A stretch of DNA of 64,000 nt from Centroscyllium fabricii (lineage: Eukaryota). The position numbers and the translations under genes were made by a program. Each line of letters starts with the position of its first letter. Position 1 is the first letter of the stretch. The notes beneath the pieces are model-generated. The model worked only from the letters and a program-made list of their open reading frames with translations, did not search any database and was not told where the DNA came from. The stretch spans positions 6,386,001 to 6,450,000 of the forward strand of contig JBNRSN020000007.1 of assembly GCA_051313645.2 (NCBI GenBank), read 5' to 3'. Of this stretch, positions 21,356-64,000 are shown one piece after another.

Positions 21356-22080
21356 GCTTCTGGTAGATGCCTCAGTTGAGGACGTGCTGAGTGAGGGTGG
21401 TGAGAGGGGTTTCCCAGGAGTTCACACTGGAGATGTGTGTGAGGCTCCAACCTTCCACATATGTGGTTAAGCCTGGAACAAGTTGCCCCAGGCCTGAAAC
21501 AACAAGGTCCTGCCACCTGCAAATGATGGCTGATGAGATCTCATCTTTTATGGTTGACCTGCAGCTGATCGTCAGCAAGCCAATAGTGCTCACGCCAGGT
21601 TTCACAGGTGTGGTTCCCACCAGGCGTGTATTACGTGGGGAAAACGGTTAAAATATCAAGGGCCTGTTAAAATGGCATTATAAAGGCCAATTAGTGCTGA
21701 TTAAGTGCCCTAAAGACCATTCCTGCCGGTTGCAGGCAGGGATGATTCGGGTCGATCAGACACGCCTGGGTTAAAATGGCTAGGAGTGAGGAACCAGGCG
21801 GGGGGGGTGCGACCCCCACTTTTTGCGATTTTAACCCACCACACGCCTCAAAGCCTGCCTGATGGCTGAGGGAAAATCAACTCCAAAGCCTTCCGGCTTG
21901 ATTTTGTAACACTCTTAGTCCTTTTAGACTTATTATTTACTGTGGCCCTGTTTGATTTAGACCCTTGATATTTCTGACTTACACTATTGCTTTTCTCCTT
22001 AGTGTTATTTGTTTCTATCCTTGCTTCACTTTCCTCTGTCTCACTGCACAGGTTGCCAAACCCCTGCCATTTTAGTATAA

Positions 22081-23222
22081 TACCTCCCCAACAGTACTAG
22101 CAAACACCCACAGTACTGCCCCTCCGACAGTGTAGCGCTCCCTCAGTATTGTGCCTCCGAAAGTGCAGAACTCCCTCAGTACTGCCCCTCCGACAGTGCG
22201 GCGCTCCCTCAGTACTGCTCCTCCGACAGTGTGGTGCTCCCTCAGTACTGCCCCTCTGACAGTGTGGCGCTCCCTCAGTACTGCCCCTCTGACACTGCAG
22301 CACTCCCTTAGTACTGCCCCTCCAACAGTGCGGCGCTCCCTCACTACTGCCCCTCCAATGGTGCGGCACTCCCTCAGTACTGACCCTCCAACAGTGCGGC
22401 GGTCGCTCAGTACTGCCCCTCCGACAGTGCAGCACTCCCTCAGTACTGTACCTCCGACAGTGCAGCGCTATTCAGTGCTGCCCCTCCGACAGTGCTGCTC
22501 TCCCTCAGTATTGCCCCTCCAACAGTGCGGCGGTCGCTCAGTACTGACCCTCCGACAGTGCAGCACTCCCTCAGTACTGCCCCTCCGACAGTGCGGTGCT
22601 CACTCAGTACTGCCCCTTCAACAGTGCAGCACTCCCTCAGTACTGCCCCTCCGACAGTGCGGCATTCCCTCAGTACTGCCCCTCCGACAGTGCGGCGCTC
22701 ACTCAGTACTGCGCCTTCAACAGTGCAGCACTCCCTCAGTACTGCCCCTCCAACAGTGCGGCGCTCACTCAGTACTGCCCCTTCAACAGTGCAGCGCTCC
22801 CTCAGTACTACCCCTCCGACAGTGCAGCGCTCCCTCAGCATTGACCTTCCGACAGTGCGGGGCTCCCTCAGTACTGCCCCTCTGACAGTGCGGCACTCCC
22901 TCAGTACTGCCCCTCCGACAGTGCAGCGCTCCCTCAGTACTGCCCCTCCGACAGTGCGGCGCTCACTCAGTACTGCCCCTTCAACAGTGCAGCACTCCCT
23001 CAGTACTGCCCCTCCGACAGTGCGGTGCTCCCTCAGTACTGCCCCTCCGACAGTGCAGCGCTCCCTCAGTACTGCCCCTTCGAAAGTGCTGCACACCCTC
23101 AGTACTGTTCCTCCGAAAGTGCTGCACTCCCTCAGTCCTGCCCCTCCGAAAGTGCAGTCCTCCACCAGTACTGTTCCTCCGACAGTGCGGCGCTCTCTCA
23201 GTACTGCCCCTCCGACAGTCCA
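22081..23222. repeat. 33-bp minisatellite, about 34 copies
   Basis: Unit CCCTCAGTACTGCCCCTCCGACAGTGCGGCGCT. Confidence 0.95.
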
Positions 23223-23399
23223 GGACTCCATCAGTCCTCTTTGCCATTAGTTGCAGATATTCACCAAACAATATCACTGTTTTGTCCATATTATCATAGA
23301 TTCAACAACCAACACATTCCTAATGTGGGTTTTATCAGGTATTTGAAGACCATGGGGTCTTTGTAACGTGAAACGGGTGATAGCGACTCAGCAGCTGTC

Positions 23400-23690: not shown

Positions 23691-23751
23691 CGATGTATAC
23701 AAGTGAATGGAAAATAAATTAAGCCAGAGTGTAAATCGGAGGATGTAAAAT

Positions 23752-25060
23752 GGGGTGGGGGGTTAAATCATGGAGGGGGTAAATCTCAGGGGGTAAATCA
23801 TGGGGGTAAATATTGGGGGTTAAATCGTGGTGGTTAAACCATGGGGTAAATCTCAGGGGGTAAATCGTGGGGGTAAATATTGGGGGTTAAATCGTGGTGG
23901 TTACACCATGGGGTAACTCGCGTGGGCTAAATCACGGTGGTAAATCACGGGCGTGAAATCGTGAGTGTAAATCACAGGGGGTAAAGTGCACGGGATAAAT
24001 CACAGGGTAAATTGTGGGGGTAAATCGCGGGGGTTAAATCGTGGGGGTTATTCGCAGGGGGTAAATCGTGGGGTGTAAATGATGTGGTGACAGGTTGTAA
24101 ATAACAGAGGGCAAATCACAGCGTTAAATCTTGGGGGTAAATCACAGGGGGTAATCTTGGGGGTAAATCACATGGTTAAATCTCACAGGTAAATCGCAGG
24201 GGGTAAATTGCGGGGGGTAAATTGCGGGAGTAAATTGCAGGGGGTAAATCGCAGGGGGTAAATCACAGGGGGTAAAGTGTGGGGCATAAATCACAGGTGG
24301 TAAATTGTGGGGGGTAAATCACGGGGGGGGGGAAACCTGGCAGCAAAATCATGGGGTAAATCACGGGGGTAAATTGTTGCGGGTAAATCACGGGGTTAAA
24401 TCTTGGGGGTAAATCGCAGGGGGTAAGTCGCATTGATAAATCACGGTGGGGTAAGTTGTGGGGCCTAAATCACTGGGGTAAATCACAGGGGTTAAATCGT
24501 GGGGGTAAATCACGGGGCATTTATCGTGGGGGGTATACCATGGGGGGTTAAATCGTGGGGGTAAATCGTGGGGGGTTAATCGTGGGGGGTAAATTGTGAG
24601 GGTAAATCGTGGGGGGTTAATCGTGGGGGTTAAATCACAGGGTTTAAATCATGGGGGTAAATCACAGGGGGTTAATCGTGGGGAGTAAATTGCAGAGGGG
24701 TAAATCGTGTGGGGTAAATCATGGGTGGTGGGTTGTAAATAATGCAGGGTAAAGCACAGGGGGTAAATTGCAGGGGGTAAATCGCAGGGGGTAAATCACG
24801 AGCGTTAAATCGTGGGGGTAAATCACGAGTGTTAAATCGTGGGGGTAAATCGCGAGTGTTAAATCGTGGGGGTAAATCGCGAGTGTTAAATCGTGGGGGT
24901 AAATCGCGAGTGTTAAATCGTGGGGGTAAATCACGGGGGTTAAATCGTGGGGGTAAATCGCGAGTGTTAAATCGTGGGGATAAATCACGGGAGGTAGATC
25001 GTGGGGAGGTGGGTTGCAAATCACGGAAGATAAATCACGGGGGGTGGGGGCGGGGGCAGG
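23752..25060. repeat. G-rich degenerate minisatellite (GGGGTAAATCGTG-like, ~13-14 bp, with a 27-bp higher-order block near 24790-24980)
   Basis: Direct reading of repeated GGGG(G)TAAATC units. Confidence 0.9.
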
Positions 25061-45522: not shown

Positions 45523-45577
45523 AATACATCAGGTTTCATGAGTTCAAAATGTTATCTAAAGGATGAATTATATCATG

Positions 45578-46367
45578 ATGTGGAGGTGCACCGTGGTGTT
45601 GGACTGGGGTGGACAAATGTAAGAAGTCACACAACACCAGGTTATAGTCCAACAGTATTATTTGAAATCACAAGCTTTCGGAGCGTTGCTCCTTCATCAG
45701 GTGTAGTCGAGAGATGCACATAAACACAGCATATATAGTCGGAGAAAAAGGTAATCTTTCCAACTGCCCTTCATCACTCCTCGGCAGAGAGACATTCATT
45801 GCAATAAAAGGTGTGAATGGTGTTCAAACAGGTCAGTCAGGAAGGCACCACCCGAAGAACAATGAGGTGGGGTCACAAAGGGTCAAATGTTGCACATGCT
45901 GGGGTCTGGGGTCTGTGTGAAAACCAACACAGAACAATAAAAAAAAAAGATTTTTCTTGCTGGACATCACAGCCAGTACAGCCGCATCTGTGTACACAGA
46001 TACGGCTGTACCTGCTGTGATTTCCAGCAAGAAAAATCTTTAAAAAAATTGTTCTGTGTTGGTTTTTCACACAGACCCCAGACCCCAACATGTGCAACAT
46101 TTGACCCTTTGTGACCCCACCTCATTGTTCTTCGGGTGGTGCCTGCCTGACTGACCTGTTTGAACACCATTCACACCTTTGATTGCTATGAATGTCTCTC
46201 TGCCGAGGTGTGATGAAGGGCAGTTGGAAAGATTACATTGTTCTCCGACTATATAAGCTGTGTCTTTATGCATCTCTACTACACCTGAAGAAGGAGCAAC
46301 GCTCTGAAAGCTTGTGATTTCAAATAAAACTGTTGGACTATAACCTGGTGTTGTGTGACTTCTTACA
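45578..46367. mobile_element. Penelope family A inverted pair (arms of ~350 bp)
   Basis: 45619-45975 is the reverse complement of ~46008-46366; TSD TTATATCATG (45568-45577, 46369-46378); hammerheads at 45668-45703 (-) and 46281-46317 (+). Confidence 0.9.
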
Positions 46368-46519
46368 GTTATATCATGGACACTTTTTCCTGCATTTAGA
46401 CAGTAAACCCCACTTATTAAAGGTGCCACCATTTGGTGTTTCAAATAGATTTTTAAAGCTTTGCCATTTCTGTTTTTAGAAGTCCTATAAAAAAAAAAAA
46501 ACAAGTTAGCGGAGTAAGG

Positions 46520-48169: not shown

Positions 48170-50048
48170 GGAATCATCAGGAGGGTGATGGAATACTCTC
48201 CACTTGCCTGGATGAGTGCAGCTCCAACAACACTCAAGAAGCTCGACACCGGGTGGGGGGGGGGGGGGGCGCTGTGCTCCGGTTAGAGTAGACGTTATTG
48301 GAGGGAGCTCCTCATAATGTAATTTAAAATTAAAATTCCATCTCTTTTTTTAACTTAAATTTAAAACATCGGCCCCTTGGAAGTAGCTGAGAGTTGGGCT
48401 GATGGTTTAGATTTGAATTTTAAATTTAGATTTCAAGTTTTTTATGTTCTTTTGAATCTCGATGTTTTTGGGAGATCTGGCCGAAGGGTAGGCCCCAGAT
48501 CTCTGTTCTACTCACTGTTGGGCCGTTGGTCGACGTCGGGCTCTGTTTCTTCGCTCCCGAGATGCGGGAGCAGGAAGATCTCGGCGGCCTAAATCGGGCC
48601 GTTGGTCGACGTCGGGGGCTGCTCCTTTGTTCCCGAGATGCGGGAGCAGGAACATCTCGGCGGCCTGGGTTGGGCCGTTGGTCGACGTCGGGGGCTGCTC
48701 CTTTGTTCCCGAGGTGCGGGAGCAGGAAGATCTCGGCGGCCTGGGTCGGGCCGTTGGTGGGCGTCGAGCGCTGCACCTTTGTTCCCGAGGTGCGGGAGCG
48801 GGAAGATCTCGGTGGCCTGGGTCGGGCCGTTGGTCGGCGTCGGGCGCTGCTCCTTTGTTCCCGAGGTGCGGGAACAGGAAGATCTCGCTGGCCTGGGTCG
48901 GGCCGTTGGTCGGCGTTGGGGGCTGCTCCTTTGTTCCCGAGGTGCGGGAGGTAGAAGAGGTAGTCGGGCCCTTATCGGGCCGTTGTTCGGCGTCGAGCGC
49001 TGTTCGATCTCTCCAGAGGTGTGGAAGGTAGAGGAGGTCGTCGGGCCTTCATCGGGCCGTTGTCGTTGTCGGGCGTTGTCCCTTTGCTCCAGAGATGCGG
49101 GAGCAGGAGGAATTCGTCGGGCGTGAATCGGGCCATTGGTTGTATGTGGACTCTTTCACTTTCTTCCAGAAGATTCTATGGACATTCATGGAGCAGTGGT
49201 CGGTGTTGGGGACTAGTTTCTTCAATCCAGGAGCTGAGAAATTGGTTTGGCCTGCGTGGTCTGCGGTCGGATGGATGGTCGGTGATCGGGTCGCCTTCTG
49301 GACTCCCTTAAACATTGATTAACTTGAACATATTTATATATAAAGAATTGGTTGAAGGTTTTTTTAATAACGTCGAATCTAGGAACTGGAGCACATGCGG
49401 ACCCTCAACGATGGCGCCGGAAAAATGGCTTGACGTCTTGTGGGTTCTCACGTGCTGTGTGTCTTTGTTCTTTGTTGTTTAGTTGTAGTTGGTTAGTTGT
49501 TATATAGTGCGTGAAACTGCAGTAAGCATTTCACCTTCTGAATTTATTGTTTATTTTCAGTTGTGTGACAATAAAGATTTTACTTACTTACTTACTTACC
49601 ACCCTGGACAAAGTAGCCTGTTTGATTGGCACCCCATCCACCACCTTCAACATTCACTCCCTCCACCACCGGCGTACCGTGGCTGCAGTGTGTACCATCC
49701 ACAAGATGCACTGCAGCAACTCGCCAAGGCTTCTTCGGCGGCACCTTCCAAACCCGCGACCTCCACCACCTAGAAGGACAAGGGCAGCAGGCGCATGGGA
49801 ACACCACCACCTCCAAGTTCCCCTCCAGGTCACACATCATCCTGACTTAGAAGTATCTCGCAGTTTCTTCAACATCACTGGGTCAAAATCCTGGAACTCC
49901 CTCCCTAACAGCATTATGGAAGCACCTTCACCACACGGACTGCAGCGGTTCAAGAAGCCGGCTCACCACCACCTTCTCGAGGGCAACTAGGGATGGGCAA
50001 TAAATGCCGGCCTTGCCAGCGATGCCCACACCCCACGAATGAATAAAA
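48170..50048 (+). mobile_element. CR1-group LINE 3' end sharing the LF-SINE tail, split by a 1.35-kb insertion
   Basis: RVMEYSPLAWMSAAPTTLKKLDT | DKVACLIG...SLHHRRTVAA...WNSLP; GGGCAATAAATG...GAATGAAT tail. Confidence 0.75.
48251..49598 (+). mobile_element. Non-coding retroposed element with internal 76-bp tandem array (~48520-49140) and (TTAC)n tail
   Basis: GTGACAATAAAG followed by (TTAC)n; GGGCCGTTGGTCG recurs at 48520, 48596, 48672, 48748, 48824 and 48900. Confidence 0.75.
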
Positions 50049-50750: not shown

Positions 50751-51272
50751 ACGGATCATAAAAACACGAAGGGTCTCTTCTCCCTGTCCTCCAACATAAC
50801 TTGGGCAGAAACCTCACTTACGCCCGTGAACAGGAGCAGGAACAGCTCCAGGAATTGCACGGGAACCCCCGCACCGTGTTAGTTACCAAACCCATCCCTT
50901 TCCGGGCAGGCTTCCCAGCTGGTCCCTACAGAATGGAACTGCGTGAATCTGAGAATCACTTCTCCAAATTTACTTGTCGAAAAGTTTGTTTTCACGTGTT
51001 GCTGTTTGAAGCAAGTAGCCAGCGACCAATTTTCATTTATTGCATTCTTTAGTGAGATTCCTGACAGACAGCTGACTCCAGACCCCAGTGATCTTTAGAC
51101 AACTTCTAATCAAAACAGCCCTTGTTATTTTACTGATAACTTGAAATCCTTAAATAAATAGCCGTTCATGAATATGCTAATTACTTTTTTGCAGATAATA
51201 TGCAAGGTATCATTCTCAGAGAAGCCACGCTTCCCCATCCTTTCATCTTAAACAGCTGACATCAATCTATAA

Positions 51273-51454
51273 TTGTAAGAAGTCACACAACTCCAGGTTG
51301 TAGTCCAACAGTTTTATTTGAAATCACAAGCTTTCGGAGCAATCTCTTCACTTCACCTAAGGAAGGAGAAGCGCTCCGAAAGCTTGTGATTTCAAATAAA
51401 ACTGTGTGACTTCTTGCAATTGTCCACCCCAGTCCCACACCGGCACCTCCACAT
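51273..51454. mobile_element. Penelope family A inverted pLTR pair
   Basis: 13-bp TSD CATCAATCTATAA (51260-51272, 51455-51467). Confidence 0.85.
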
Positions 51455-51972
51455 CATCAATCTATAAAGTATAGAGGCCCTGGCTGGAGCCAGCATTAAA
51501 ACTAACGGGAGTGAAAACTGGGCAACTCTTAAATTGCTTAGCCCTTTCGGAGATTGCACAATATTCTCTGCACATTTAAGCAAAGGAAGGCAAAGCATTC
51601 CGTGAAAAGTGCATGCACCCCTGACTTAGTGACTGCACCAAAAGAATTTGGCAACACTTAAACCAGTTCTGATGAAAGTATTGTCGAACGGAAACATTAA
51701 CCCTGCGTCTCTCTCCCTGCAGGCTCCGCCTGACCTGCCCAGCGTTTCCAACATTTTCTGTTTATTTTTGATTTCCAGCGTGCGCAGTGTTTTGCTTTAA
51801 AACATGATACTTATTTAACTCTTTGAAAGTTTTGAAATACATCAAAAAAAAGAACACTGCCTTAATCGCTCATGCTTTCCATTTGTAAAACGATAACGAT
51901 TGCTGGCCTGTGCTCTGCAGCTTAACAATAAAAACTGGCATAAGTATAATCATTGGGTAACATTGGGTAACA

Positions 51973-53043: not shown

Positions 53044-53399
53044 ATGATGTGGAGGTGCCGGTGTTGGACTGGGGTGGACAAATGTAAGAATTCACACAAC
53101 ACCAGGTTTTGTCCAACAGTTTTATTTGAAATCACAAGCTTTCGGAGCGCTGCTGCTTCGTCAGGTGAAAGAGAAGCTGATCCAAAGACAAATATGTTAA
53201 AATATGTTAAAACACCTTTGTCTGCTCTGTTTGTCTCTTTACTGGAGTGAGATGTGGGGGATCAGATTTCTCTCTCCCTTGTATATGTGCTGTCTTTAAG
53301 TCAGCTTCTCTTTCACCTGAGGAAGGAGCAGCGCTCCGAAAGCTTGTGATTTCAAATAAAACTGTTGGCCTATAACCTGGTGTTGTGTGACTTCTTGCA
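53044..53399. mobile_element. Penelope family A inverted pLTR pair
   Basis: Hammerheads at 53132-53168 (-) and 53313-53349 (+, intact core); no clear TSD. Confidence 0.85.
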
Positions 53400-54102
53400 T
53401 TTTTTGGAAAGTTGTGTGTGTAACCCGTGCTTGGTGTGTTTGTGCAACATGTTTCTTTTGTTTTGAACACATGTTTATCATTCCCTGTCGAAGCTTATAA
53501 CTTCTCTTTATTAAAATAAAAATAATTTCCAGAGGAACCGCCGATGTGACGCAGAGCCTTATTATCCACATTTTAATGAGATTTGGTTAAATGAAATGCT
53601 GCAGCAGTTAAGGGCGGGCAATCAACTTTTATTAACCTCTGAGGTTTCAAGATGCCGTGAAGTGGAACACACTCAGGATTTAATACATGGAAACAGGGTT
53701 ATAAATGGGGGAATCGCAGTCTGTGTTTCTGCGGGTTAACCTGTAGCCGACTCGTCTGTTGTCCCTGGACACATGTGGTCAGCTGTTGGGACTCACATAT
53801 GGCCAAATGATCAAAGGCTGAACTTCTGTCTAATTGTACTCCTGCTGCTTGGTTACTCTATCCACCATCAAGGTCTCAGCAGGTGATGGGGGCGGGCGGG
53901 GGGCATTCCTATAGCTTGAATGGAGAATGAGCCAGAGAGAGAGAGAGCGAGAGAGAGGCCCAGGCTGAAGAAGAAGAGAAAAGAACAAACTTAAGAGAGA
54001 GAGAGAGAGAGAGTTGAAAGTACATCAGCCTGACCCTGGGAATCCTGAGACAGTGTCCTGTCTGGCAGGTTTCTGTTTTTCTGACAGCGAACTACTGCAG
54101 AG

Positions 54103-54770: not shown

Positions 54771-54965
54771 GATAGCAAAATACTGCAGATGCTGGAAATC
54801 TAAAACAACAACAGAAAACGCTGGAAAGACTCAGTAGGCCAGGCAGCATCGGTGGAGAGAGGAGCAGAGTTAACGTTTCAGGTCGACAGCGAAACGTTAA
54901 CTCTGTTTCTCTCTCCACCGATGCTGCCTGGCCTGCTGGGTTTTTCCAGTGTTTTCCGTTGTTAT
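54771..54965. mobile_element. Penelope family B inverted pLTR pair
   Basis: 15-bp TSD TCTCAATCTTATTAT (54756-54770, 54966-54980); GAAACGTTAACTCTG on both strands. Confidence 0.85.
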
Positions 54966-57245: not shown

Positions 57246-58186
57246 TCGGAAAGAATGTAGTTTTACAAAAAACAATGCACTTATAAATGGCCCTGACATT
57301 AGGATCCATCATCACCCAGTGGTACTGTGCATATTTATAGATATTATTCACTGTCAGAGGTGCCGTCTTTCGGATGAGACGTTAAACCGAGGCCCCGTCT
57401 GCTCACTCGGGCGGACGTAAAAGATCCCACGGCCATTATTTTGAAGAAAAGCAGGGGGAGTTCTCCCCGGTGTCCTGGGTTCAATATTTATCGCTTAATC
57501 AACATCTGAAGGCCACGAGTTACTCCAGCTTTTTTCGAGGGCATCTGAAGGCAACGTTGCCCACAGAATCATGGAAAAAAATGATCCTTTTTCAATTGGA
57601 AATTTTGGGTGCAACTCATTCCTGGGCATTATGCTAAGAGCCCTTTTCCCTCAGCATCGGAGATTTCGGATCCGTGGGCATCTCGGATCCGTGGGCATTT
57701 TTTGTGGGCATCGCCGTGGGCATCTGCTTTAGGCATCGGAATTTCTGGCCCAATTATCTGGTCATTTATCTCATTGCTGTTTGTGGGAGCTTGCTGTGCT
57801 CAAATTGACTGCCGCATTTCCTACATCGCAACAGTGACTCCACTTCAAAAAGTACTGCATTGGCTCTGAATTGTTTTGGGACATCATGAGGTTGTGAAGG
57901 CGCTACAGAAATGTAAGTTCTTTCTTTTTATTATGGTAGACTGCATGAGAAATGCCAATGATACTGTGGGGTCAAAGTTCCACAAGGGTTCCAGAAATGC
58001 CAGTTGACATGCCCTGTAAGGGGTGAAACCTCCGCCCCATTACCCGCCGCCACCCTCCCTTTCACAAGGCAACTGTTGGTAGGCATCACAGAGCCGGGGG
58101 TGGGGATTCCCAATGCCTAACGTTCCTGCTGGCCCGGCTCAGTCTGGGCCAGCAGGAACTTCGCTACGCTGAGTGAGTTGAGGTAC

Positions 58187-58504
58187 AACGGCCTCCAGGC
58201 GAAGCCAAGCCTTTCCCAGCAGGGAACGGCCTCCAGGCGAAGCCAAGCCTTTCCCACCAGGGAATGGCCTCCAGTCGGAGCCAAGCCTTTCCCAGCAGGG
58301 AACGGCCTCCAGGCGAAGCCAAGCCTTTCCCAGCAGGGAATGGCCTCCAGGTGAAGCCAAGCCTTTCCCACCAGGGAACGGCCTCCAGTCGGAGCCAAGT
58401 GTTTCCCACCAGGGAATGGCCTCCAGTCGGAGCCAAGTGTTTCCCACCAGGGAACGGCCTCCAGTCGGAGCCAAGCCTTTCCCACCAGGGAACGGCCTCC
58501 AGGC
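58187..58504. repeat. 38-bp minisatellite, ~8 copies
   Basis: AACGGCCTCCAGGCGAAGCCAAGCCTTTCCCAGCAGGG at 58187, 58225, 58263, 58301 and onward. Confidence 0.92.
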
Positions 58505-58543
58505 AGAGGAAGCAGCTCGGATGCTTCACCCCTTACAGCACGA

Positions 58544-58744
58544 AGTCACACAACACCAGGTTATTGTCCAACAGTTTTATTTTAAATCACAAGCTTTCAG
58601 AGCGCTGCTCCTTCCTCAGGTGAAGTGTCGAGATTCATTTAAACATAGCATATATAGAGAGAGATAACAATGTGGTCTCTCCAACTGTTTCACATCACAC
58701 CTCAGCTGAGGGACATCAAACCAACACCGGCACCTCCACATCAT
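58544..58744. mobile_element. Penelope family A: long tailless arm (-) joined to only 24 bp of tail (+)
   Basis: TSD CCCTTACAGCACGA / CCCTTACAACACGA (58530-58543, 58745-58758). Confidence 0.8.
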
Positions 58745-61242: not shown

Positions 61243-61955
61243 ATACCTGGAATGGGCGGGTTGTCTTATGAGGAAAGGTTGGACAAGCTGGGCTTGTATC
61301 CGCTGGAGTTTAGAAGAGTGAGAGGCGACTGGATTGAAACATAGAAGATCCTGAGGGGTCTGGACAGGGTGGATGGGGAGAGGATGTTTCCTCTTGTGGG
61401 GGAATCTAGAACTAGGGGTCACTGTTTAAAAATAAAGGTCATGATGTGGAGGTGCCGGTGTTGGACTGGGGTGGACAAATGCAAGAAGTCACACAACACC
61501 AGGTTATAGTCCAACGGTTTTATTTTAAATCACAAGCTTTCGGAGCACTGCTCCTTCGTCAGGTGAAAGTCTCTCTTTCACCTGAGGAAGGGGCAGACGC
61601 TCCGAAAGCTTGTGATTTAAAATAAAACTGTTGGACTATAATCTGGTGTTGTGTGACTTCTTAAAAATAAAGGGTCGCCCATTTAAGACCGAGATGAGGA
61701 GAATTTTTTCTCCGAGGGTGGTGAGTCTCTGGAACTCTCTTCCTCCGAGGGTGGGGGAAGCAGAGTCTGTGAATATTTTTAAGGCCGAGGTCGATCGATT
61801 CTTGGTAAGCAAGGGGGTGAAAAGTTATCAGGGGTAGGCGGGAATGTGGAGTAATCGGATCAGACATGATCTTATTGAATGACGGAGCAGGCTCGAGGGG
61901 CCGAGTGGCCGACTCCTGCTCCTAATCCGTATGTTGGTGTGTATGTATGTTCGTA
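61243..61955 (+). mobile_element. CR1 3' end split by a Penelope inverted pair at 61441-61660
   Basis: TSD TTAAAAATAAAG(G)GTC (61426-61440, 61661-61676); hammerheads at 61530-61566 (-) and 61578-61615 (+). Confidence 0.88.
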
Positions 61956-62560
61956 TACAATACACCAATGCACACAACTGTTGCTGGCTGTGTCAACTGT
62001 TGCGTTTTTGGCCCATTTAGATGTCCGCTTTGTGCCACCAAGGCAGAAATGTGTTCGTTATAAAGGGTTCAGACACATACTGTCATAGATGGAATTCTCC
62101 TTTGAGGATTCCATCTTTAAATTCTATGTCTGTTCTCTGTTTAATTCATTATACCTCATTTTCCAGTAAATACAGCTAATTGTACCTCGTTTATTGTTTA
62201 GTGCAATTAAGGGGACTGAGCTAATTAATCAGTTTGGCTTGAGCTGTATTTAAGCTTTGGGTTGGCAACAGGAGATTGCCGGATCGTTATCTACTACTAG
62301 GAAACAGATGTGCTGTCCTAGCTCCGTGGAGGCAGTCTTATGTGGGGAGTTACCCTGCTTGTAGAAGAGATGGATTCTCCTGCTGAAGGCTCTGTTGGAG
62401 TTAGTCTCCTCGGGGAAGCGGACCCTGGAGAATTCCTGTTTCTACATTCTGGACATTGCTCTCAATCACCTGTACTCAGGTTTGGACACTAATTCATATT
62501 ACTATGATGCCCCTTCAGTTATGTTGGATGCTCTTGGCTGAGTGTCCTGGGGGTACAGAA

Positions 62561-62958
62561 GAAAGCTTGTTCCAGTTCCTAAAACTCTCTGATGGAAGTA
62601 GTCGTTGTAAAGGGTTCTACTCACAGAGGAAAGCTTGTTCCACTCTGATGAAGTAGTCGTTGTAAAAGGTTCTACTCACAGAAGAAAGCTTGTTCCAGTT
62701 CCTAAAAACTCTCTGATGGAAGTAGTCGTTGTAAAAGGTTCTACTTACAGAAGAAAGCTTGTTCCAGTTCCTAAAACTCTCTGATGGAAGTAGTCGTTGT
62801 AAAAGGTTCTACTCACAGAGGAAAGCTTGTTCCACTCTGATGAAGTAGTCGTTGTAAAAGGTTCTACTCACAGAGGAAAACTTGTTCCAGTTCCTTAGTC
62901 GTTGTAAAAGGTTCTACTCACAGAGGAAAACTTGTTCCAGTTCCTAAAACTCTCTGAT
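62561..62958. repeat. Irregular tandem repeat (~50-70 bp units)
   Basis: GAAAGCTTGTTCCA...CTCTGATG(G)AAGTAGTCGTTGTAAAAGGTTCTACTCACAGAG, about 6 copies. Confidence 0.9.
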
Positions 62959-63043
62959 GCTCTTCGCTGAGTGTCCTGAGGGTTCCAAGTGTATTACGAA
63001 TGTCGTTGATCTCTGTATTGTAATATTTAACTGTATGTATATA

Positions 63044-63955
63044 CAGGTTGAGCACCGTTAATCCGGCACGGGCGGGACCAGGCCCGTGCCGGGAAATGGA
63101 AAAAACCGGGAGAACGAGTTTGGACACTGCGCATGCGCACAAGTCGGTGGCAGCGCGCATCATTGGTATTGGCTGGCGCGCGCATGCGCAGATCGTCCAA
63201 TATTGGCCGCCGCGAAGTTTTTTAATGGGCTCAGGCTTTTGTGGCGTTCCGTTTAGGTTTTAGGGCTGTCGGGCAGCAGTGAAAGGCCGGTCTTGCGGGG
63301 GGAGGCAGGAGGGTGGCGTGGTGTGGCGCGGCGCGGTGGGGGGGGGGGGGAAGGAGGGTGACGCGGGTCCGGGGGGGGGGAGGCAGGAGGGTGGCGTGGT
63401 GTGGTGCGGCGCGGGGGGGAAGGCGCAGGTCCCGGGGGGGGGGAAAGGAGGGTGGCGCGGGTCGGCGGGGGGGCAATTTATCCAATCCCGTTTTGCTCTG
63501 TAAGAGGTAACACGGTGCCAGGCTGTGGTCCAACGGTTTTAGTTGGGGTCACGGGCTTTCGGAGCGCCGCTTCCCCGTCAGGTGATGGGGGAGCGGCGCT
63601 CCGAAGGCCCTTGATTTCGAGTGGGACTTTTGGACTACAGCCTGGTGCTGTGTGGCTTCTTACAATTGTCCATCCCAGTCCAACACCAGCACCTCCACAT
63701 CATGGCTTCAATTACAGTTATCGATAAAATAACCGGCGGCCGTACTGAATTATCTGCGCATGCGCTAACCTTCCGGCGACGCATGCGCAGATCATTCAAA
63801 ACACCCGCAGCAGTTTTGAAGCGCATGCGCAGATCATTCGTTGAAGCCACGATGTCGGCTGCCATTTTGCGCATGCGCAGTGCAGTCGGGGCAATTTGTG
63901 CCGGCAGACTGAAGCTGCCGGCTATTCGGTTACCGGATTAACGGTGCTCAACCTG
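63044..63955. mobile_element. pogo/Tigger-like MITE, 912 bp, containing a Penelope inverted pair (63500-63703)
   Basis: Perfect 23-bp TIR CAGGTTGAGCACCGTTAATCCGG; TA TSD (63042-63043, 63956-63957); internal GCGCATGCGC repeats. Confidence 0.9.
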
Positions 63956-64000
63956 TATATGTTTTGGCTAATTGGGGAAATAAAGGAATCTTAGCACTAG

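Follow-up and report, generated by a model that had tools for sequence, protein, structure and literature searches.

Layout of the locus

The window analysed here, a stretch of 64,000 nucleotides from Centroscyllium fabricii, contains close to its right end a Tigger/pogo-type MITE in which two inverted Penelope pLTRs form a hairpin (63499-63664). The features of this element, in window coordinates, are as follows.

63044-63955, no strand assigned: Tigger/pogo-type MITE of 912 bp, an internal-deletion derivative of a transposon of about 5 kb and the carrier of the hairpin
63044-63066, plus strand: left TIR, 23 bp, preceded by TA (63042-63043)
63297-63473, plus strand: G-rich minisatellite of the MITE, of variable length between copies and with no evidence of being an editing product
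63489-63500, plus strand: remnant of the left target-site duplication, 5 bp being deleted in the window's subfamily
63499-63580, minus strand: arm 1, inverted Penelope pLTR without tail, with 13 A>G and 4 T>C (plus strand) relative to the unedited ancestors
63550-63585, minus strand: putative minimal hammerhead, core intact in the unedited ancestors; in the window the last CUGANGA base and cleavage-site bases are altered
63583-63614, plus strand: putative hammerhead, first core base lost at the junction already in the ancestors; GAAA and the cleavage site substituted later
63583-63664, plus strand: arm 2, sense pLTR, with 10 A>G and 4 T>C relative to the unedited ancestors
63665-63702, plus strand: unpaired Penelope tail, 0 A>G
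63703-63714, plus strand: right target-site duplication, which through microhomology shares letters with the natural end of the pLTR tail
63756-63878, no strand assigned: three GCGCATGCGC palindromes, with two more at 63129 and 63180
63933-63955, minus strand: right TIR, 23 bp, followed by TA (63956-63957)

The carrier of the hairpin is a transposon of the pogo/Tigger lineage. Members of this group and their MITEs have short TIRs, a TA duplication, a CENP-B-type HTH, a DDE_1 transposase and many internal-deletion derivatives. The left TIR matched the genome 91,750 times with at most one mismatch, and the same element was found at all 30 loci examined; its left TIR was located in 29 of them, and TA flanked every left (29/29) and right (30/30) end found. 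Relatives of about 5 kb sharing these ends encode CENP-B_N, HTH_Tnp_Tc5 and DDE_1 domains on the minus strand, the transposase ORF read in a long relative being broken. The TA-flanked TIRs and the transposase-bearing relatives thus indicate that the edited hairpin spread to thousands of sites by DNA transposition. In the long copies the minus-strand transposase lies downstream of the hairpin and reads leftwards, so that RNA of the minus-strand hairpin is expected. The GCGCATGCGC palindromes, located upstream of the transposase in the long copies, resemble NRF1 promoter sites and are a candidate promoter. Two MITE copies (L067 and L086) have lost 37 bp at the hairpin tip, possibly through a polymerase skip across the fold.

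The Penelope insert has no ORF. Its arms, 82 nt each (63499-63580 and 63583-63664), show 74% complementarity, and arm 2 starts with a 3-base overlap with arm 1 within the hammerhead core. The two hammerheads (63550-63585 and 63583-63614) were called by their motif, and an Rfam scan of the window gave no hammerhead match; core or cleavage-site bases are altered on each strand, in agreement with the original prediction that both ribozymes are damaged.

Substitutions in the hairpin

As reference for the window hairpin we initially used the majority of 16 other pLTR alignments within the window. On the plus strand, arm 1 differed from it by 12 A>G and 4 T>C and arm 2 by 11 A>G and 4 T>C, reproducing the counts of the original prediction, and the tail, described there as almost consensus, had no A>G at its 9 A positions. 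The A>G background in the other pLTR copies of the window was 11/409. Each of the 8 T>C faced an A>G in the partner arm, as had been claimed; Of the T opposite an edited A, 8 of 23 had changed to C, versus 0 of 24 opposite an unedited one (Fisher p=0.0016). The A>G changes fall on the same strand in both arms despite their opposite orientations.

The true unedited ancestors described below shift this list slightly. Compared with them A>G affects 23/47 A of the hairpin (13+10) and 0/12 of the tail, and the hairpin has 8 T>C and 7 changes of other kinds; position 63500 is gained, 63625 was G ancestrally and 63596 takes the place of 63595. Seven of the 8 T>C now lie opposite an A>G and the eighth (63568) opposite a G of other origin, and three of the other changes (63509, 63516 and 63611) belong to a late sub-lineage or are private. 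In the window hairpin A preceded by G was edited at 3/10 sites, compared with 20/36 for the remaining neighbours (p=0.28, not significant); in the first round of changes 3/11 such sites were edited.

Authenticity of the edited bases

The search of the genome with the hairpin gave 287 candidates, and all 40 that were scored were full length and near-identical. The junction pattern revealed at least 2,861 copies of the hairpin-bearing MITE, confirming that other MITE copies carry the same edited insert, and the edited G was present in 100/100 of the junction-pattern matches listed first. Hairpins and G-runs are known trouble spots, and the original prediction had named a base-calling artefact at a palindrome next to G-runs as an alternative. 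Base-calling or assembly error is nevertheless hardly conceivable: identical bases occur in thousands of copies on both strands and define heritable subfamilies, contigs from the short-read runs of two studies (one perhaps the source of the assembly) contain the edited bases, and perfect unedited hairpins are correctly assembled in the same genome.

From empty to edited sites

A search with the flank of the older subfamily returned 76 matches, by our count 59 empty sites, 7 filled with an unedited hairpin, 8 filled with an edited one and 2 others. The target duplication of 11-12 bp is single in the empty sites and double in the unedited elements and in those with 19 A>G, which identifies the inverted pLTR pair as a primary Penelope insertion into the transposon. 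The proposal that an already edited pair was retrotransposed into the MITE is therefore not supported at this locus, where the pair entered unedited with its duplication and acquired its edits later. Unedited copies reside in long, transposase-bearing elements, with the left TIR 3.6-4.3 kb away in 3 of the 7. Among six of them we counted 25 private changes, of which one was A>G.

The first edited state was recognised through a contig from another organism with fewer arm-1 edits, which served as the pattern for the older subfamily. This pattern of the 19-A>G state, which lacks T>C, matched the genome 182 times. Of 30 matches examined, 28 were assigned to the older subfamily, in which the TIRs are variant and the 19 A>G occur without any T>C. 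From the unedited to the 19-A>G state the hairpin acquired A>G at 19 of 50 positions together with 5 other changes; A>G affected none of the 9 tail positions, and in the alignable part of the backbone 2 of 122. Position 63500, the last base of the left duplication remnant, is among the 19; it is an A facing C in a mismatch at the base of the ancestral hairpin. Later states followed: the intermediates L178, L195, L214 and L217 have 6-8 T>C without the late A>G, L205 has three further A>G, and a fourth A>G was acquired after that. Median distances over the insert (unedited 4.1%, older edited 2.7%, main family 2.3%, with mixed subtypes) are in line with the order from unedited through older edited to main, although not sharply. 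Markers near 63568, in the tail and in the loop are mosaic among subfamilies, so the finer order of the later steps is uncertain. For the main-family majority the two copies with the tip deletion (L067 and L086) were excluded, and L224, with its hairpin cut short, was left out of the comparison. From these states we infer that the pair was inserted unedited and then edited stepwise on both strands.

No empty site was found with the flank of the young subfamily, the 7 matches being 6 filled copies and one unrelated sequence, and the 14 matches to an unedited arm 2 joined to the young right flank were 12 unrelated insertions and 2 single revertants. The edited state occurs in many deletion backbones, and no mapped edited copy has the deletion junction of the empty subfamily; homing of the edited hairpin into that subfamily was rejected on this ground. 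The many backbones imply that fixation of the first round took place in a long element. This element would have gone through an RNA stage or been overwritten in part on the spot, and the need for several of these infrequent events weighs against the account given below.

Several observations concern the insertions themselves. Twelve unrelated pLTR insertions end in the same letters as the right duplication. In L141-L154 the end of the pLTR tail matches the target by microhomology, which bears on the mechanism of Penelope insertion, and the unedited inverted pLTR pairs among these loci have target duplications of 12-14 bp. The letters of hammerhead loop II are the most variable ones among the six unedited copies, in both arms (L230, L243, L249-L252); they correspond to window positions 63565-63568 and 63595-63596, and conversion by other pLTRs is possible. 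Among the short-read contigs, those of organism C show the 19-A>G state; in one contig of organism D, perhaps chimeric, the right flank of the MITE is connected with an unedited arm from a different pLTR subtype.

Independently edited loci and host-gene retrocopies

A search for pLTRs with 5 or more of 7 A>G within a single A-run gave 71 genome matches, and none for the reversed control; 7 of the listed A-run strings belong to the MITE described here. The 30 matches examined included 21 independent loci and 6 from a host-gene family. An inverted partner was present within the 3 kb read at 12 of the 21 independent loci. In these partner arms, on which no selection had been made, A>G on the same strand reached 85/261 and T>C 4/216, and where the partner sequence was unpaired A>G fell to 2/56. 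Of the 21 independent loci, 11 are followed within about 1.1 kb by a CR1/SINE 3' end on the same strand, compared with 2 of 21 at the mirror position (p=0.012) and with 2 of 12 unedited loci; the retrocopy route thus probably accounts for about half of the independent loci. Seven single edited pairs keep full target duplications, as read by eye. At L100 (1600-1700), L090, L095, L104, L109, L111 and L117 the A>G clusters extend into an adjacent SINE or deep into internal Penelope sequence, and L109 is a fold-back of about 640 bp with about 80 G:T pairs.

The host-gene family comprises 23 loci (L118-L140) chosen by their flank alone. Its parent (L140, G000:C1044:340.87-340.90 Mb) is an HTH_psq gene, presumably LCOR/LCORL-like, whose 3' UTR contains a perfect unedited hairpin of 137 nt together with a SINE that has a short-repeat tail. 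L120 was considered as the parent and rejected, being a retrocopy with a 2.8-kb insertion. The retrocopies, primed at the SINE tail, have a common 3' end, which is a CR1-type short-repeat tail of a SINE and not poly(A), and variable 5' ends, at least 7 of them being 5'-truncated inside the hairpin. One retrocopy, together with its duplicate, is spliced over a 24.4-kb GT-AG intron, and the other copies read stop short of this junction. None of 19 retrocopy ends showed a convincing target-site duplication; CR1 insertions often lack them. In L129 most of the hairpin is deleted, possibly by a polymerase skip across the fold.

In the 20 non-duplicate retrocopies 196 of 540 hairpin A were edited (the duplicates L137, L127 and L102 were left out of the analysis, and L126 of the upstream UTR count because of an over-extended alignment). 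A>G outside the hairpins amounted to 5/177 in the tail and 8/1,839 in the flanking UTR, and to 104/1,158, in several copies, in the SINE part. T>C was absent (0/168). The 11 near-complete retrocopies have 11 distinct edit sets of 8-25 of the 41 sites each. Editing followed the 5' neighbour in the order U (49/79, 0.62), A (104/200, 0.52), C (33/163, 0.20) and G (10/96, 0.10), and 5'-G was depleted (10/96 versus 186/442), although the same 41 positions recur across copies. The order matches that given for ADAR in PMC8586724 and PMC10713624. The retrocopies are direct genomic evidence that each host-gene RNA molecule was, as its own edit set suggests, separately edited and then reverse transcribed. 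Same-strand A>G, proposed as a check on other pLTR pairs, was observed in them, and the 5'-G depletion named in that check was seen in the host-gene retrocopies; in the partner arms of the independent loci C (18/102) was as low as G (7/35).

Origin of the T>C changes

T>C is lacking both in the first edited state and in the host-gene retrocopies, which points to a second process. In the MITE lineage T>C is found at 8 of 19 T facing G and at none of 26 facing A, and the sites lie in helices that persist, the melted central cluster being unchanged (a pattern noted after the fact). Round one left the minus-strand hairpin with A:C at the places of the plus-strand G:U pairs, and its predicted energy changes from -135 to -71 kcal/mol. 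A C opposite the A raises editing by every ADAR tested (PMC10713624). A opposite C was favoured here at 63500 and in the minus-strand count given above, an outcome that DNA repair predicts as well. The four late A>G are all in [ACT]AG, a context of 10 of the 27 remaining A (p=0.012, post hoc).

Four MITE copies in a ferritin intron (L207-L210, G000:C745:4.77-5.10 Mb) have a burst of their own, with 13-15 T>C, of which 9-10 are at the 19 T facing G and 4-5 at the 26 facing A; the latter are not explained by repair of G:T. They represent a single older MITE insertion, duplicated four times, within an intact intron of a ferritin tandem cluster. The 200 kb covered include 4 paralogues with the MITE and 8 without it, and no ferritin paralogue was found with the MITE in the state before the burst. 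All 4 MITE-bearing paralogues share 13 T>C, and the burst may therefore predate the insertion. It looks like minus-strand hyper-editing.

For the window, we give slightly better than even chances to the reading that the T>C arose as A>G of the minus strand, at A:C mismatches created in round one. The competing explanation keeps ADAR and reverse transcription for the A>G and attributes T>C to DNA-level repair of G:T to G:C in the folded plus strand, by fold-back during gap repair, replication or transcription, or of A:C to G:C on the minus strand. This combination accounts for all 8 window T>C facing G and for the low rate of T>C in the single loci, confined to T facing G (6/190 versus 0/278); moreover, the T>C step restores the predicted energy of the DNA hairpin from -50/-39 to -75/-66 kcal/mol, and the ferritin-intron copy is not a retrocopy at its present site. 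We nevertheless regard repair as unlikely, given the T>C facing A in L207-L210 and the position of the changed T mostly outside TpG, the context preferred by glycosylases. Private T>C are also rare, at 1/1,107 T in 27 main-family copies and 7/1,268 in 26 older copies, so the change was episodic. Neighbouring sites are converted in opposite directions between the arms; this excludes conversion of tracts and with it the arm-to-arm conversion that had been put forward as an alternative. Of the original proposal that G:T pairs were later converted to G:C, the part that makes T>C a later step stands; minus-strand editing at A:C may fit somewhat better than the conversion itself.

Proposed editing, write-back and spread

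Taken together, it is very probable that the hairpin records an unedited insertion, ADAR hyper-editing, write-back by reverse transcription and spread by DNA transposition. An inverted Penelope pLTR pair would have inserted unedited into a Tigger DNA transposon, and its hairpin RNA would have been hyper-edited, by ADAR to judge from the substitution pattern. Reverse transcription would then have returned the edited RNA to DNA more than once, in round one on the plus strand and in a later round probably on the minus strand, and the edited versions were multiplied by transposition between the TA-flanked TIRs. Strand-polarised bursts entered this cut-and-paste lineage at least twice, and probably three or four times. 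The strand-polarised A>G confined to the arms and the host-gene retrocopies support the central idea of the original prediction, ADAR-type editing of hairpin RNA with write-back. A Penelope template edited before a twin-primed insertion was rejected, as the plus strand would then show A>G in one of the arms but T>C in its partner.

An account without a deaminase, by ordinary mutation, GC-biased gene conversion or selection on hairpin strength (first weaker, then re-stabilised), could draw on the fact that all directional changes are A:T to G:C and that the edited subfamilies far outnumber the unedited one (2,861 and 182 versus 7), which may reflect such selection. It is very improbable all the same, as a first step of 19 A>G and 0 T>C is strand-polarised and contradicts mutation and GC-biased conversion, private changes are mostly G>A and C>T, the backbone lacks the bias and the same signature occurs in unrelated loci.

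As to the route by which the edited RNA returned to the lineage, retrocopying of a transcript spanning the element by CR1-type machinery, followed by mobilisation by the transposase, has about an even chance; local cDNA replacement of the hairpin is a tentative second candidate, and other routes are improbable. No parent-retrocopy pair was found for the transposon: the right flanks of the 6 unedited copies matched no fetched edited copy, in a flank comparison covering about 35 of the at least 182 copies in the 19-A>G state. We also considered that the edits were written in place, either by the Penelope endonuclease nicking its own pLTR and the RT copying an edited local transcript, or by ADAR deaminating dA in an RNA:DNA hybrid, for instance between one arm and the RNA of the other. 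The changes that end at the hairpin with the backbone unedited, the repeated rounds on both strands in a lineage moving as DNA, the edited state common to many backbones, the burst in an intact ferritin intron and the 7 single edited pairs with full target duplications would all agree with this. PMC11167929 describes a Penelope RT that starts at two sites bounding the tail and a Penelope protein that nicks its own pLTR junction in vitro, and PMC7955049 the editing of A-C mismatches in RNA:DNA hybrids by ADAR1p110. Still, we consider writing in place doubtful. Ordinary retrocopying suffices in the host-gene family, where the parent was left unedited, and a CR1/SINE priming end lies downstream of about half of the independent loci. 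Moreover, edited and unedited alleles of one site were not found, and the 13 T>C common to all 4 MITE-bearing ferritin paralogues again allow a burst before the insertion. If true, writing in place would amount to a natural prime-editing loop, by which a DNA transposon without an RNA stage and a gene intron would inherit serial A-to-I edits on both strands.

Comparison with known systems

Fixation of ADAR clusters by reverse transcription is already known. ADAR-linked A-to-G hyper-editing was described in RAV-1 (Felder 1994) and avian leukosis virus (Hajjar and Linial 1995), both as cited in PMC8586724, and in these avian retroviruses, as here, A>G clusters from dsRNA editing were fixed in DNA via reverse transcription. 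The avian cases are viral clones, whereas the clusters described here are fixed in the germline and concern a Penelope hairpin, retrocopies of a host gene and a lineage of DNA transposons, with several rounds on both strands. APOBEC3-edited endogenous retroelements likewise preserve deaminase clusters in genomic copies and were recognised by comparison of copies, but their G>A arises on cDNA and without the restriction to paired arms seen here (PMC2873906). In high-quality DNA traces, from human or from Xenopus, that survey found A-to-G clusters not to be in excess. In plant mitochondrial retroprocessing an edited transcript is reverse transcribed and the genome altered at the edited sites, possibly locally; that process concerns C-to-U at fixed sites in an organelle, in contrast to A-to-I hyper-editing in a vertebrate-type nuclear genome (PMC4987113).

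The layout of the insert is known as well: endonuclease-bearing Penelope-like elements share the inverted pLTR, the one-sided tail of 30-40 bp, the short target duplication and the pLTR hammerhead (PMC3846280 and PMC11167929), and hyper-edited copies were not found in the literature searched. Nor did that literature, mostly non-subscription, yield any description of ADAR hyper-editing that had become fixed in the germline, be it in Penelope hairpins, in retrocopies or in DNA transposons. The pogo/Tigger cut-and-paste cycle has no RNA stage, whereas the serial changes in this lineage point to RNA stages, and the series raises the testable question of how a cut-and-paste element repeatedly acquires RNA-level changes.

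The loci provide a dated, internally controlled record of RNA editing turned into heritable DNA in an animal germline, which includes parents without edits, descendants edited independently of one another and successive rounds. Each host-gene retrocopy amounts to a snapshot of how ADAR once acted on one molecule in the germline, and together the retrocopies show that hyper-edited RNA escapes destruction, is reverse transcribed and enters this germline. Furthermore, A>G clusters in genomic repeats can mimic RNA editing in RNA-seq of such genomes.

Other repeats in the window

Four more inverted pLTR pairs lie in the window (45574-46370, 51271-51457, 53044-53402 and 61431-61666), without A>G clusters. 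A near-perfect hairpin is located at 54810-54961, with miRNA-like Rfam matches below the gathering scores. Tandem arrays were found at 22005-23330, 23700-25010 and from 37378, with periods of about 33, 13-14 and 17 bases, and at 48441-49043, 58111-58566 and 62560-62960, with periods of about 76, 38 and 50-62 bases, respectively.
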